Positions 48,481 through 60,263 of a stretch of 64,000 nucleotides of DNA are shown in pieces (position 1 is the first letter of the stretch; each line of letters opens with the position of its first letter). The DNA is from Bacillota bacterium (GTDB lineage Bacteria > Bacillota > Dethiobacteria > DTU022), in the NCBI GenBank assembly GCA_019428945.1, contig JAHYJM010000005.1, positions 1,562 to 65,561 on the forward strand. The letters are read 5' to 3'. Under the pieces are notes generated by a model. The model had not been told where the DNA came from. It saw nothing but the letters and a program-made list of their open reading frames with translations, and did no database searches. A program made the position numbers and the translations under genes.

Positions 48481-49380
48481 TTATTCCAATCCGTAACCTG
48501 GGAAGAAGAGTGTCTCGCCGTTAACCTGGTAAGAATTGATCAGGTTTTGCCCTTCTTCCGACATGAGGAATTCTACGTACATCATGGCATATTCGTACTT
48601 AATGCCCTCATGTAATTCAGGATTGACAGCCATGACGCCATACTGGTTAAAAAGAACCGGATCGCCTTCCAGCGCTATAACCAGGTCAATACTGTCTTTC
48701 ATTGAAACATAAGTGCCGCGGTCGGTAAGAGTATATCCGAGACGTTCATTGGCATGGTTAATTGTATCGCCCATACCCTGGCCGATTGACTCATACCAGC
48801 TTTCGCCTGCCGGATCAATACCGGCTGCTTCCCAGAGACGCAGTTCCATCCGGTGCGTTCCAGAATCATCGCCCCGTGATACAAAGATAGCGCCGCTGTC
48901 GGCAATTAAAGACATCGCTTCTGCTGCAGTTGTTACACCACCCACGCCAGCTGGATCCTCAGCAGGGCCAACAAAGATAAAGTCATTATACATGACATCA
49001 TAACGGTCTACAAAATAACCATCCTCTACGCCCTGCAGTTCTGATCCCCGATCGTGAACAAGCAAAACGTCAGCATCTCCACTGCGGCCGGTTTCCAACG
49101 CGGCCCCGGTGCCCTGGGAAACCACCCTGACTTCGAGGCCAGTTTGTTCTGTAAAAATTGGGTTAAGAAAATCGAGCAGGCCTGAATCATAGGTGCTAGT
49201 TGTGGTAGCCAGGATAATAAAGTCATCAATTAGCTCAACTTCTTCTTCCGGTGTGGTTTCTTCTTCAACCGGTTCTTCAACCGGGGCTCCTTCTTCTGCG
49301 CATCCGGCAAAGAATAAAAGTGCTGCCATAAGCATTAAACCAAATAAAAGCTTAAACTGAATTGAACTACGGTTAAACAT
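48481..49380 (-). CDS. tupA: Tungstate-binding periplasmic lipoprotein TupA
   Basis: Lipoprotein signal LLFFAGC and the TTTS oxyanion-binding motif (ILATTTSTYDSGLLDFL). Confidence 0.8.
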   Translation of the reverse strand: MFNRSSIQFKLLFGLMLMAALLFFAGCAEEGAPVEEPVEEETTPEEEVELIDDFIILATTTSTYDSGLLDFLNPIFTEQTGLEVRVVSQGTGAALETGRSGDADVLLVHDRGSELQGVEDGYFVDRYDVMYNDFIFVGPAEDPAGVGGVTTAAEAMSLIADSGAIFVSRGDDSGTHRMELRLWEAAGIDPAGESWYESIGQGMGDTINHANERLGYTLTDRGTYVSMKDSIDLVIALEGDPVLFNQYGVMAVNPELHEGIKYEYAMMYVEFLMSEEGQNLINSYQVNGETLFFPGYGLE

Positions 49381-49440
49381 TAAAAGTCCACTCTCCTCTT
49401 GGTAGTATATTAATTAATACTATGCTTTAATCCGCTGGAA

Positions 49441-49570
49441 AGATGGTCGTGGCATACAACCACGAGAGCCTTCTTTCCGCAACGGGAGGCACAGCTGTTT
49501 CCGGCCGTACCCCAGCCTGCTATTCATGACGCTGCAAGATCGCTTTAGAATGAACAGGTCGAAGGTAAAA
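49441..49570 (-). ncRNA. Structured 5'-leader element E1 directly abutting the tupA RBS; candidate Moco/Tuco-class riboswitch (translation-control type)
   Basis: Shares the conserved blocks CCTTCTTTCCGCAACGGGAGGC, GTTTCC and GATCGAAGG with E2 and E3. It is followed on the minus strand by AAGAGGAGAG (RBS) and the tupA ATG. Confidence 0.45.
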
Positions 49571-49621
49571 CTTTTAGAAATGCTTTATTCCTTAACACTT
49601 CACCCCCCTTGTTTGGTCAAC

Positions 49622-49795
49622 AAAAAAAATCGCAGTTTCCCATGGGTAAGTGCGATTTTAATAACTTTCCTTGATCCTTCTTTCCGCAATGGGAGGCCCG
49701 GCCGTTTCCAGCTAAACCCTGTCGTCCACCTTTCGTAGCAACATGTAGTGCTTTAGATACAGTGGATCGAAGGTTATTATTTAATTGTTAGCAAG
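49622..49795 (-). ncRNA. Structured element E2 with intrinsic-terminator expression platform; candidate Moco/Tuco-class riboswitch (transcription-termination type), in tandem upstream of E1/tupA
   Basis: ~85% identical to E3 over ~150 nt. The minus-strand hairpin ATCGCA..TGCGAT (49629-49656) is followed by U8. Confidence 0.45.
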
Positions 49796-49890
49796 CACAC
49801 TATATCAGGATATTTAAACCATGTCAACTTTGGCAGGTGATCAAAACCGGGCTGGTTTTGCCAGGTTGTTATAAAAAAATATCCTGATTT

Positions 49891-50766
49891 TTAGGCTTTA
49901 CCTACCTTTCCCTTATCCTCTATGGCAGCAGGAACATCTTCACGGTAGATGGTGGAACCGACTTCTCCTCCATCAAGTGCACTGCTAATACTTCCCGGTA
50001 CAAGCCCGTTGATAATCCGGATCTCTTTCAAGTTTTTGGCTGAAAGCAGGTATTCAAGTACGGCTCTTTCAATTACCAGGTCTTCCAAATCTCTTTCGAT
50101 TAAATCTTTTGCGCTGATTCTGGGAATCAACTCCGCATTTGAGTCAATTTTAGGATTATCCGTATAGAGCCCATCGACATCTTTGACATAGATACATTGC
50201 TTTGCGCCGATGACTTCTGCGAGCAAAAATGCTCCCACATCTGTGCGGTTCTGAGGCAATCGTCCTTCAGTCGGGAGCGGCTCCCAGTATCCGTAGGGAG
50301 GCATGCCGTGAACAACAGGAATGCATCCCTGGGCAAAATAGGCACCCAGCTTGGGTATGTCATCGTGGCCGATTTTAATTCCCCCGTAAGGGCTAAGCAG
50401 GGTGGAAAGGATTAACGCATTCTGTTCAGATACGCTCTGACCCAACTTTGCTATTATACCTGTGGGCATTCCCAGCTCCATGGCTATAGCGTAAACGTGG
50501 CGGGAACGAGTGCCTCCGCCAGTAGAGATTATCATTTTATGCTTTTTTGCGTTACTGACGATCTCTTCTATAATTGGTATTACTGCTTTAGCTCCGATGT
50601 CGGTAATACTTTGACCGCCGACTTTCAATACGCTGACATCGGGGAATACCTTGAAAGGTTCACCATATTCAAGACTTTTTAAAAAAGACTTACCAACCAG
50701 TGATTCACCCATCAGCTTGCTTTTCAGGTGAAGCCTTTTACTGTCTTTTTCCCGAATTAAAGCCAT
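49891..50766 (-). CDS. Amino-acid-kinase (AAK) superfamily protein (UMP-kinase / isopentenyl-phosphate-kinase / Mo-storage-protein-like fold)
   Basis: The N-terminal nucleotide-binding motif VLKVGGQSITD and MIISTGGGTRSRH. 291 aa. Last gene of the element-controlled operon. Confidence 0.7.
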   Translation of the reverse strand: MALIREKDSKRLHLKSKLMGESLVGKSFLKSLEYGEPFKVFPDVSVLKVGGQSITDIGAKAVIPIIEEIVSNAKKHKMIISTGGGTRSRHVYAIAMELGMPTGIIAKLGQSVSEQNALILSTLLSPYGGIKIGHDDIPKLGAYFAQGCIPVVHGMPPYGYWEPLPTEGRLPQNRTDVGAFLLAEVIGAKQCIYVKDVDGLYTDNPKIDSNAELIPRISAKDLIERDLEDLVIERAVLEYLLSAKNLKEIRIINGLVPGSISSALDGGEVGSTIYREDVPAAIEDKGKVGKA

Positions 50767-57422: not shown

Positions 57423-57782
57423 TGTACTCGAGGTGCCATATAGATTTTGATGAAGGGAAGCAGTAAGCAGGAATGTTTTCTCAGAGAGCCGGCGCCTGGT
57501 GAAAACCGGCAGGCGGAACTGCTGAACTCGTCCCGGAGAAGCAGCGGTAAATTTTTAAAACGCTGCCGTAAACCGGCGTTAACGGTAGAAAGAGGGCAGC
57601 ATATCATGGGGCTGTGGCGCAGGGGGAGCGCGCTTCCTTGGCATGGAAGAGGCCGCGGGTTCAATTCCCGCCAGCTCCACCACATTTTGTCTGACCAATA
57701 AGGGTGGTACCGCGGGTATGAATCCGTCCCTTGACAGGGCGGATTTTTTATTTGGTGAAACATATGGAGACGGAGGTTTAAT
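57423..57782 (+). promoter_or_regulatory. T-box riboswitch leader of leuS (Leu, CUC specifier), interrupted by a tRNA gene
   Basis: The 5' part reads GAUGAAGGGAAGCAGUA (Stem-I base GA motif), ...GAACUCG (specifier-loop candidate) and AGAGAG/GGUGAAAA (distal elements). The 3' part carries the T-box sequence AATAAGGGTGGTACCGCGG (57697-57715) and the terminator ATCCGTCCCT/AGGGCGGAT+T6 (57722-57749). The RBS GGAGACGGAGG precedes the ATG. Confidence 0.65.
57608..57683 (+). tRNA. tRNA-Ala (anticodon GGC)
   Basis: Cloverleaf folded by hand. 7-bp acceptor with a G3:U70 wobble, discriminator A73, D-stem GCGC/GCGC, anticodon stem CTTCC/GGAAG, loop UUGGCAU (GGC), T-stem GCGGG/CCCGC with TTCAATT loop, and an encoded CCA. 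Confidence 0.85.
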
Positions 57783-60263
57783 ATGGTGACGAACTATAAT
57801 CCTGCCGAAATCGAAGAAAAATGGCAGCAGAAATGGGCTGAGGATGATTCCTTCCGCTCGGAAATCGACCATGATAAAACCAAGTATTATGTCCTGGAGA
57901 TGTTCCCCTATCCATCAGGGAAACTGCACATGGGCCATATGCGCGTCTATTCAATTGGTGATGTACTGGCTCGTTTTTTACGTATGCGCGGCTTCAATGT
58001 TATTCATCCAATGGGTTGGGATGCTTTTGGTCTTCCTGCAGAAAATGCAGCAATAGATCACCGGGTTAACCCGGCAATCTGGACTGAACAGAATATAGAA
58101 CATATGAAAAAACAGCAGAACCGGCTGGGAGTCAGCTATGACTGGAGTCGTGAGGTTAATACCTCTGCTCCTGATTATTATCGTTGGTCCCAGTGGTTAT
58201 TTCTTTTAATGTATAAACGCGGGCTGGCTTATAAGAAACAGGCCAGTGTTAACTGGTGTGAAACCTGTGAAACTGTGCTGGCAAATGAACAAGTGGAAAA
58301 GGGTCTTTGCTGGCGCTGTTCATCAGTAGTTGAAACACGTGATCTCGAACAATGGTTTTTACGTATAACTGAATATGCCGAACGTTTGCTTTATGATCTG
58401 GATAAGCTGGAAGATTGGCCTGAAAGGGTCAAAACTATGCAGCACAACTGGATCGGTCGCAGCGAAGGTGCTGAAATAGCATTTAAGGTGAAGGAAATAC
58501 CGGAAGAAGAGGTACGCACATTTACTACCCGGCCTGACACTCTCTTCGGGGTTACATCTATGGTTCTTGCTCCGGAACACCCGCTGGTTAAAAAATTAGT
58601 TGAGGGTACCGAAAGAGAGAAAGATGTAATGGACTTTGTCGCCAGGGTCAGAAAAGAGAGCGAAATTGAACGCACCGCAGATGAGGCGCCAAAAATCGGA
58701 CTATTTACCGGGCGCCATGTTGTTAATCCGATCAATGGTGAAGAAATCCCTGTCCTGGTTGGCAATTATGTCCTGATGGGCTATGGAACAGGTGCAGTAA
58801 TGGGTGTACCCGCTCATGATCAGCGGGATTTCGAATTCGCCAAAAAACATAAACTGCCGATAAGGATAGTTATCCAGCCTGAAGGCGAAGAACTTGATGA
58901 ACACACTATTACAGAAGCTTATACCGGTGAAGGTGTAATGGTGAACTCCGGCAGTTTTAACGGCCTTAATAATACAGAAGGCATGAAGAAAGTGACTGAG
59001 TACCTTAAAGAGAAAGGGCTCGGTGATTTCAGGGTTACTTTCCGGTTGCGGGATTGGCTGATTTCAAGGCAGCGATACTGGGGCGCTCCGATACCGATTG
59101 TCTATTGTGATAAGTGTGGAACAGTACCTGTTCCTGAAACTGATCTGCCCGTTAAACTGCCTCATGATGTGGAGCTATCAGGGAACAGGGTTCCGGGTCT
59201 TGCCCATTATGAAGAGTTTGTTAAGGCTACCTGTCCGGTTTGTGGCGAACCGGCGCGTCGTGAAACTGATACAATGGATACTTTTATATGCTCATCCTGG
59301 TACTTTTTCAGGTATGCCAGCCCACATTCACAAATTGCGCCATTTGAGAAGGATGATGTTGATTATTGGATGCCGGTTGATCAGTATATCGGGGGGATTG
59401 AACATGCAGTGCTCCATCTTCTTTATGCCCGGTTTTTCACCAAGGTTTTGTTTGATGCAGGAATGACCAGGGCAGAAGAACCTTTCAGCCGCCTGTTGGC
59501 CCAGGGAATGGTCTACAAGGATGGCGCTAAAATGTCCAAATCAAAGGGTAATGTGGTAACACCTGATGAAATTGTTGAAAGGTACGGCGCCGACACCGGA
59601 CGTCTCTTTATATTGTTTGCGGCTCCTCCCGAAAAAGATCTTGACTGGAATGACCAGGGGGTAGAAGGTTCGCATCGTTTTCTTCGCCGGGTCTGGCGTC
59701 TTGTAGTGGAATGCCGCGAGCAGTTTGCCACCGGAAAGGGCAATGCAGATCATGGTGAAAAGGAAGCTGAGCTTGAAAGAGTTTTGCATGCGACAATCAG
59801 GAAAGTTACGCACGACATTGAGAAGAGATTTAACTTTAACACAGCGATCAGCGCTATCATGGAGCTGGTCAATGCCATCTATAATTACCGTCTCAGCGTT
59901 GAAGAGGTTAAACAAAACAATAGTCTGTTAAAAGAGACGCTCGTAAAAACAATATTACTGCTGGCGCCTTTTGCACCTCACCTTGCTGAAGGGGCATGGA
60001 ATCTGCTTGGATACAAAGAGAGTGTGCACAAACAGAGCTGGCCCGAGTTCGATACAGTTAAACTGGTAGTTGATGAAGTTGAAATTGTTGTCCAGATTAA
60101 CGGTAAAGTACGCGGCAGAATGGTTGTCCCAGTCGACTTTAATGAAGATGACCTTGCCGAAGCTGCCCGTGAAAATGAGCGTATCAGTGAGCTCATCGAA
60201 GGCAGAGAGGTAGTTAAAATCATAGCAGTTAAAGGACGACTGGTTAACATAGTAGTCCGTTAG
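57783..60263 (+). CDS. leuS: Leucyl-tRNA synthetase
   Basis: 826 aa. The HIGH motif appears as HMGH and the KMSKS motif is present. The CP1 editing domain is present. Confidence 0.95.
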   Translation: MVTNYNPAEIEEKWQQKWAEDDSFRSEIDHDKTKYYVLEMFPYPSGKLHMGHMRVYSIGDVLARFLRMRGFNVIHPMGWDAFGLPAENAAIDHRVNPAIWTEQNIEHMKKQQNRLGVSYDWSREVNTSAPDYYRWSQWLFLLMYKRGLAYKKQASVNWCETCETVLANEQVEKGLCWRCSSVVETRDLEQWFLRITEYAERLLYDLDKLEDWPERVKTMQHNWIGRSEGAEIAFKVKEIPEEEVRTFTTRPDTLFGVTSMVLAPEHPLVKKLVEGTEREKDVMDFVARVRKESEIERTADEAPKIGLFTGRHVVNPINGEEIPVLVGNYVLMGYGTGAVMGVPAHDQRDFEFAKKHKLPIRIVIQPEGEELDEHTITEAYTGEGVMVNSGSFNGLNNTEGMKKVTEYLKEKGLGDFRVTFRLRDWLISRQRYWGAPIPIVYCDKCGTVPVPETDLPVKLPHDVELSGNRVPGLAHYEEFVKATCPVCGEPARRETDTMDTFICSSWYFFRYASPHSQIAPFEKDDVDYWMPVDQYIGGIEHAVLHLLYARFFTKVLFDAGMTRAEEPFSRLLAQGMVYKDGAKMSKSKGNVVTPDEIVERYGADTGRLFILFAAPPEKDLDWNDQGVEGSHRFLRRVWRLVVECREQFATGKGNADHGEKEAELERVLHATIRKVTHDIEKRFNFNTAISAIMELVNAIYNYRLSVEEVKQNNSLLKETLVKTILLLAPFAPHLAEGAWNLLGYKESVHKQSWPEFDTVKLVVDEVEIVVQINGKVRGRMVVPVDFNEDDLAEAARENERISELIEGREVVKIIAVKGRLVNIVVR

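Follow-up and report, generated by a model that had tools for sequence, protein, structure and literature searches.

The 64,000-nt window analyzed here (assembly GCA_019428945.1 of a Bacillota bacterium from the Dethiobacteria lineage DTU022, contig JAHYJM010000005.1, positions 1,562 to 65,561 of the forward strand) carries a tungstate ATP-binding cassette (ABC) transporter operon, tupABC, that is preceded by two riboswitch aptamers of the same class arranged in series. The operon was recognized by family matches and comprises tupA (49380-48481) and tupB (48228-47530), which match the NCBIfam TupA and TupB models with scores below the equivalog cut-offs, as well as tupC (47579-46794), a member of the ABC ATPase family; unless stated otherwise, all window features lie on the minus strand. 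Scanning the whole window with Rfam cmscan yielded three matches at the gathering cut-off (36 bits) of RF01055, the molybdenum-cofactor/tungsten-cofactor (Moco/Tuco) aptamer family, all of them on the minus strand. Two of these, E2 (49784-49661; 61.2 bits, E = 3e-12; P1 formed by 49773-49769 with 49680-49676) and E1 (49576-49454; 55.9 bits, E = 1e-10; P1 formed by 49565-49561 with 49473-49469), lie ahead of tupA, and the third, E3 (52201-52078; 65.5 bits), lies further upstream. A permissive Rfam scan of 49300-50000 found no element besides E2 and E1. The presence of two RF01055 copies in series before tupA is real and far beyond chance. Along the minus strand, the stop of an amino-acid-kinase (AAK) family gene (49891) is followed by a promoter, E2, a hairpin with a U8 tract, a 42-nt spacer, E1, a Shine-Dalgarno (SD) sequence and the tupA ATG at 49380. 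E2 and E1 are 84 nt apart, with no conserved open reading frame (ORF) between them, only a 17-codon GUG mini-ORF that starts in the spacer. Rfam and the sequence confirm the order given in a preliminary description of this DNA, namely AAK stop, E2, hairpin plus U8, E1, ribosome-binding site (RBS) and tupA.

E1, E2 and E3 all lack the P3 helix, the corresponding model positions being deleted in their alignments to RF01055. Regulski et al. (2008, PMC2408646) linked the P3-less variants to metabolism of the tungsten cofactor (Tuco/Wco), and the absence of P3 together with tungsten genes (tupABC) downstream places the window aptamers in the Tuco/Wco subtype. For comparison, TupA served to fetch 80 loci of GTDB species representatives and another 80 of metagenomic origin, and further loci were obtained via exact-protein look-ups of the closest TupA homologs; all loci (designated by L numbers) were scanned for aptamers with a covariance model trained on 15 aptamers, with Rfam as a cross-check. 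An exact-sequence look-up of the window TupA gave no match, and a homolog search returned clusters P0001 (100% identical) and P0002 (99%), the latter leading to L161, a near-identical contig from an independent metagenome-assembled genome (GCA_033549225.1). The window lineage is uncultured and annotated as Syntrophomonadaceae, Dethiobacteria or Bacillota. A P1-P2-P4-P5 fold was recovered by RNAalifold from 15 homologs, with compensatory changes in 15 of the 30 pairs, and the invariant columns (CGA, CUA, GGAAAC, GCCUCCC and GGAAAG) are kept in both E2 and E1, apart from the P2/P4 junction of E1. The earlier statement that two same-class elements with different expression platforms precede one transporter operon is thus upheld, both elements being complete P3-less aptamers before tupABC.

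A sigma-70 promoter of the tupABC leader is located at 49827-49799, with a -35 box TTGACA (49827-49822), a 17-nt spacer and a TG-extended -10 box TATAGT (49804-49799). It matches the consensus at 11 of 12 positions and ends 25 nt before P1 of E2. Consensus matching was applied to 28 homologous aptamers, taken from related loci as well as from the window. Each of the 21 in first position is preceded by a promoter with a score of 10/12 or higher and a 17-nt spacer, whose end lies 23-33 nt before P1, and the second-position aptamers reached promoter scores of only 7-9/12. No promoter was found between E2 and tupA; the best candidate there has 8/12 matches and is missing the A2 that is obligatory in a -10 box. 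With a strong promoter before E2 and none between E2 and tupA, consensus prediction suggests that tupA transcripts must start upstream of E2 and run through both elements. On sequence grounds, E2 therefore belongs to the tupA leader and does more than close the upstream operon: a promoter of its own precedes it, as in its first-position homologs, and the related L019 leader follows a divergent glyQ gene, so that the aptamer pair there is unambiguously a 5' leader. The alternative that the E2 terminator doubles for the upstream operon holds in part, since a terminator scan of the minus strand found no other intrinsic terminator-like site from the upstream gene stop (49891) to E2, and read-through from the upstream operon would consequently meet the E2 hairpin first; what does not hold is that E2 is merely an upstream 3' end.

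The expression platform of E2 is a terminator-like hairpin, AAAAUCGCA...UGCGAUUUU (49659-49626), followed by a U8 tract (49629-49622), which was found by folding and homology. The hairpin has a folding energy of -9.5 kcal/mol with two internal mismatches, and its homologs in relatives are terminators of the form AUCGCA...UGCGAU-U(n). It was missed by the terminator scanner because of these mismatches and the program's loop rules. In four relatives, the aptamer 3' strand GGAAAGAAGGAUC and the terminator 5' arm GAUCGCAUUUUCC form an antiterminator, and local folds of seven units gave antiterminator energies of -11.4 to -13.3 kcal/mol for L019_A, L095_A, L011 and L026, -8.7 kcal/mol for L001 and -5.8 kcal/mol for E3, the seventh being E2 itself, discussed below.

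The platform of E1 is of a different type, with no U-tract after the aptamer. The aptamer 3' half CCGUUGCGGAAAGAAGG (49485-49469) is complementary to CCAUCUUUCCAGCGG (49446-49432), so that CCGUU..GGAAAGAAGG can pair with CCAUCUUUCC..AGCGG in an anti-aptamer/anti-sequestor hairpin (49485-49432) that encloses an inner hairpin (49465-49447). Within it, CCAUCUUUCC (49446-49437) constitutes an anti-SD strand able to pair either with GGAAAGAAGG of the aptamer or with the tupA SD, GAGGAGAG (49398-49391), plus the UGG that extends to 49388. The 21-bp anti-aptamer hairpin is present in the unconstrained minimum-free-energy fold. When the aptamer pairs are enforced, CCA-U-CUUUCC of CCAUCUUUCC pairs instead with GGAGAG-UGG (GGAGAGUGG, 49396-49388), and the mean unpaired probability of the SD drops from 0.2-0.42 in the free fold to 0.0-0.01, in the window and L019 alike, at an energy cost of 4-8 kcal/mol. 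An E1-type platform lies directly upstream of tupA in seven loci. Across these seven leaders, 87% of cells are paired in the anti-aptamer helices versus 40-51% in slid controls (the spread over all such comparisons being 87-90% versus 38-51%), and 87% in the sequestor helix versus 38-75% in slid controls; two to three pairs are compensatory or covarying, all in the inner hairpin. A translational OFF mode for E1, suggested by folding and sequence conservation, is consistent with these data but unproven.

Based on these features, we propose a two-stage OFF control of tungstate uptake, transcriptional and then translational, that is, a "bi-mechanism" tandem, to which we assign a probability of roughly 0.6. 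Transcription would begin at the 49827-49799 promoter, and the E2 terminator would halt a fraction of the transcripts, by homology a larger one when the cofactor is bound. E1 would then act on those transcripts that read past E2. Without ligand, CCGUUGCGGAAAGAAGG would pair with CCAUCUUUCCAGCGG in the 21-bp hairpin, leaving the SD comparatively accessible, and with ligand bound, P1 of E1 would form and free CCAUCUUUCC to pair with GGAGAGUGG, blocking tupA translation. The aptamers, the promoter, the terminator-like hairpin and the alternative pairings are seen in the sequence and its predicted folds and are conserved in relatives; the ligand would presumably be the tungsten cofactor, ligand binding is expected to act on both units in the OFF direction, and any steeper dose-response would likewise be a predicted property. 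To our knowledge, direct cofactor binding has not been shown for any member of this class, the cofactor being unstable. The two-stage gate put forward in the preliminary description is accordingly sustained in its anatomy, both platforms being present. Its functional part is less secure, since the ligand-dependence of E2 is doubtful, E1 carries lesions and the translational mode of E1 is deduced from folding and conservation.

Several observations weigh against this two-stage control. On the side of E2, the best antiterminator reaches only -1.7 kcal/mol and uses a second, non-aptamer GGAAAG, and no other terminator among the seven is as weak (-9.5 versus -12.8 to -20 kcal/mol). In folds that precede the appearance of the terminator 3' arm, upstream pairing engages 0 of 14 5'-arm bases in E2, compared with 9-11 of 13 in E3 and L019_A. 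With its antiterminator nearly gone, the ligand-dependence of E2 is doubtful; it is suggested by homology, and thermodynamic folding gives it no support, so that E2 may function as a leaky constitutive attenuator. On the side of E1, the SD is partly paired even in the unconstrained fold, the sequestor helix showed no covariation and its shuffle controls were not significant across the seven E1-type leaders, and other constraints act on both CUUUCC and the SD. Moreover, the P2/P4 junction of E1 is the shortest among 32 aligned aptamers (GGC-UG-GGG versus GAC-GNNA-GGG), and a G stands at 49513 where other members have the near-invariant A of AGGG.

The main competing view is that one of the two units is decaying. 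The E2 observations raise the possibility that only E1 responds to ligand, E2 having decayed to a weak, mostly constitutive attenuator that also serves as the first terminator for read-through from the E3 operon. The depleted antiterminator, the weak terminator, the unpaired 5' arm and the lack of any other terminator-like site after 49891 would all be expected under such a scheme. Nevertheless, the E2 aptamer is intact (all invariant positions are kept) and has its own strong promoter, a strong antiterminator is kept in its ortholog L019_A, and kinetic switching is often missed by thermodynamic folding. We regard this explanation as unlikely, though deserving serious attention.

The converse explanation is that E1 is decaying or inactive, having been redundant since the loss of a neighboring gene, mop (see below), that regulation is exerted by E2 (and E3) only, and that the SD-proximal structure sets a fixed translation level. 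E1 indeed scores lowest of the three window aptamers, its junction is 2 nt shorter than those of the six other E1-type aptamers, and the G at 49513 is the sole difference between the window and L161 (which has A) in 531 nt of leader. The second aptamer of the only other tight tandem, L019_B, is degenerate too, being the most degenerate member at 43.3 bits with a CUA to CAA change. The degeneracy of E1 and L019_B is compatible with relaxed selection on a unit made redundant behind another riboswitch, and could equally reflect tuning or an assembly error. Against inactivity, E1 scores 20 bits over the cut-off and keeps all other invariant core nucleotides, its switching helices are intact and conserved, and distant homologs tolerate 3-nt junctions without the near-invariant A. 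A non-functional E1 therefore seems quite improbable to us.

The relationship between the two aptamers was addressed with a neighbor-joining tree of 35 aptamers. E2 and E3 are mutual closest relatives (87% identity) and are placed among the first-position terminator-type aptamers, whereas E1, L019_B and L095_B form a clade of their own, basal to the other aptamers of the lineage. E1-type aptamers differ consistently from the others at the P2 base (CUG/CAG versus CCA/UGG) and in having GGAAACAG rather than GGAAACGG. The separate clades and different platforms point to E1 and E2 being old paralogs carrying different platforms, not the products of a recent local duplication. The consistent sequence differences of the basal clade would also fit a scheme in which the aptamer lineages sense different ligands or concentrations, for instance the tungsten cofactor in one case and a precursor or the molybdenum cofactor in the other, forming a two-input or two-threshold gate. 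Both lineages, however, are P3-less, share every invariant core position and regulate tungstate-uptake genes, and no specificity determinants are known, which makes such a gate very unlikely. The broader notion that E1-type aptamers constitute a distinct basal P3-less lineage differing in specificity or set-point, yielding a two-input or two-threshold controller assembled from riboswitch-per-gene modules, fares little better and is at most a faint prospect. Cooperation of both aptamers through a single platform, as in tandem glycine aptamers, would fit two same-class aptamers only 84 nt apart, but it is rejected on anatomical grounds, because a terminator hairpin with U8 stands between the aptamers, each has its own platform, and a whole gene separates the two units in relatives.

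The two-stage arrangement was further placed in its evolutionary context by comparison with related loci. The neighborhood is conserved and consists of obg-rpmA-rplU, the divergent tupABC operon with its riboswitch, and a convergent RNase G gene, the commonest arrangement being a single P3-less aptamer with a terminator before tupA. In L162 (TupA identity 90%) and L169 (82%), three successive aptamers precede p249, mop and tupABC, respectively, mop encoding a 68-aa TOBE protein. Nine loci carry the order aptamer, mop, aptamer, tupA (L164, 98%; L166, 91%; L168, 86%; L171, L003, L009, L016, L086 and L087), and L095 has an aptamer, p244, mop, a second aptamer and tupA. The TupA identity of relatives with mop between the last two aptamers ranges from 79% to 98%, and the tupA-proximal aptamers of L162, L168, L169 and L171 share the E1 platform type. 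A gene-free tight tandem was found in two lineages only, namely the window with the near-identical L161, and L019 (TupA 79%); a metagenome scan found no further tight tandems. The L019 leader is 80% identical to that of the window from the promoter to tupA and has the same order of elements, E2 being orthologous to L019 4108-4233. A three-way alignment showed that mop is missing from both the window and L019, with differing end points. Independent mop::tupA fusions with one aptamer each are found in L002 (5935-6012), where the C-terminal part of mop is joined to the TupA signal peptide, and in L167 (~600-640), where the mop N-terminus MKLSARN is joined to TupA, showing that deletions recur in this interval. 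Given the riboswitch-gene modules in close relatives, the tight tandem most likely arose through deletion of mop, a small molybdate/tungstate-binding gene, so that it looks like a by-product of gene loss between two riboswitch modules and not like a purpose-built digital gate, which weakens the preliminary reading.

The 42-nt spacer between the E2 U8 tract and E1 (49621-49580) is present in the window and L161 and has no counterpart in L019, and in L162 its position is occupied by mop. It contains TTGACCAAAC, a G6 run within the SD-like AAGGGGGGUGA, a GUG at 49598 and AAGGAAUAA. The SD-like GGGGGGUGA / AAGGGGGGUGA-GUG resembles the mop ribosome-binding sites of relatives (GGGGAGGUGAAA..AUG), and AAGGAAUAA resembles AAAGAAUAA at the mop end in L162. 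Judging from its position and these short motifs only, the spacer is probably a remnant of the deleted mop. A tblastn search of mop against the window detected no remnant, only weak short similarities, and TTGACCAAAC also resembles the -35 region of upstream-type promoters. As a separate observation, the G6 run (49603-49608) could base-pair with the invariant CCUCCC in both aptamers, and in the unconstrained fold it does so with that of E2. It forms the SD-like motif before the GUG of the mini-ORF (49545-49598), which enters P1/P2 of E1 and is not conserved.

Upstream of the tandem, E3 with its promoter (52251-52223) and terminator (52073-52040) heads a cassette of three genes. The first, p251 (51885-51130), weakly resembles the TiaS kinase domain and methanogenesis marker 11; the second, p74 (51043-50819), has an acidic C-terminus and no family match; and the third (50766-49891) is the AAK gene of the preliminary description, whose 291-aa product is homologous over its full length to MosB, the beta subunit of the molybdenum storage protein of Azotobacter (PDB 2ogx_B, E = 2e-68), with E = 1e-45 to the alpha subunit. 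This lone MosB-like gene, found in a lineage of anaerobe type and placed under the tungsten-cofactor riboswitch E3, may encode a tungsten storage protein. None of the three genes was detected by tblastn in the 80 tupA loci from the genome collection, and of the other loci with examined gene content, L161 alone shares the cassette. A short ORF with a TTG start directly after the E3 terminator (52009-51935, MFSREYLKNNGFSDCKVVGKFAGKK...) resembles the p244/p249 N-terminus (40% over 25 aa, E = 0.004, a weak value computed against the window alone). As a p244/p249 gene follows the first riboswitch in L095, L162 and L169, this ORF may be what is left of a gene that gave way to the p251-p74-mosB cassette.

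Several further observations were made in the window and its relatives. A gene of the MFS_MOT1 family (molybdate transporter type 1) extends the tupABC operon in L162 (6740-7834), L169 (5395-6525) and L171 (5405-6559) and is absent from the window, and in L171 the mop module is separated from the first riboswitch by IS66 transposase genes. Near the tupA locus, L002 (960-1059 and 2527-2626) and L003 (1530-1629) carry pyrrolysine insertion sequence (PYLIS) motifs belonging to mtbB and mttB, indicating that the lineage has pyrrolysine-containing methylamine methyltransferases. On the plus strand of the window, a T-box leader (RF00230, 111.8 bits; 57441-57734) precedes the leucyl-tRNA synthetase gene leuS (57783-60263), and its specifier codon is read as CUC (Leu) from the specifier loop GAA-CUC-G. 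A 98-nt insertion between its stem III region and antiterminator holds a complete tRNA-Ala(GGC) gene (57608-57682) with the G3:U70 identity pair (RF00005 66.9 bits; also reported by ARAGORN). Such a non-cognate tRNA gene inside a T-box leader is unusual, and the same nesting is present in L001 (T-box 278-571, tRNA 333-404).

Tandem Moco RNAs have been described in Syntrophomonas wolfei and Geobacter metallireducens, including a P3-less triple array in S. wolfei on an operon with transport genes, which has terminators after copies one and two and none after the third, and a more digital response has been proposed for such arrays (Regulski et al. 2008, PMC2408646). The window tandem resembles the S. 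wolfei array in its P3-less class, in belonging to a related Bacillota lineage, in having copies in series on a molybdate/tungstate transport operon, and in carrying a terminator after the upstream copy and none after the last. Compared by description, it differs from that array in being a doublet, in its identifiable, putatively SD-sequestering downstream platform and in its putative origin via gene loss. A later survey of multi-platform same-ligand tandems counted 13 doublets and 2 triplets for Moco and also listed Wco tandems (Sherlock et al. 2022, PMC9481103). The same survey introduced "bi-mechanism" tandems, with a terminator first and ribosome-binding-site control second, for SAM-II/SAM-V and some SAM-II (S-adenosylmethionine riboswitch) doublets, which the window pair resembles in having presumed same-ligand units with their own platforms, predicted here to act on termination and then on ribosome access (PMC9481103). 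It files Moco/Wco tandems as pseudo-cooperative without singling out a mixed terminator/RBS Wco pair, and its Wco tandems precede genes unrelated to cofactor synthesis, not tupABC as in the window (PMC9481103). In Eubacterium limosum, an RBS-sequestor/anti-sequestor Tuco riboswitch on tupABC is known alongside terminator-type Tuco riboswitches (PMC11725836). By description it is P3-less like E1 and has the design predicted for E1, an RBS-sequestor with an anti-sequestor that overlaps an aptamer helix, and it differs from the window tandem in being single and from a different lineage (PMC11725836). The tandem thiamine pyrophosphate (TPP) riboswitches of Bacillus anthracis (Welz and Breaker 2007, cited in PMC2408646 and PMC9481103) likewise place two independent same-ligand OFF switches in series and serve as the model for a steeper, "digital" response, but both of their units are of the terminator type and belong to another RNA class. 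These published Moco/Wco and bi-mechanism tandems provide a precedent for every element of the initial interpretation, and the arrangement, presented there as rare, is not new, having been published for the class and for a related lineage.

In summary, the window adds a new member in a different lineage, a conserved E1-type platform and evidence that the tight tandem derives from modular arrays, while knowledge of the class itself is unchanged. It would provide a natural mixed tandem in which two riboswitches of the tungsten-cofactor class govern a tungstate transporter, first transcriptionally and then translationally. The related loci form an evolutionary series, from three riboswitch-gene modules through two modules with mop between them and the tight tandem to mop::tupA fusions with a single riboswitch, cautioning that not every tandem is an adaptation for a digital response and indicating that losing the gene between two riboswitches can produce a tandem, which may afterwards start to decay.

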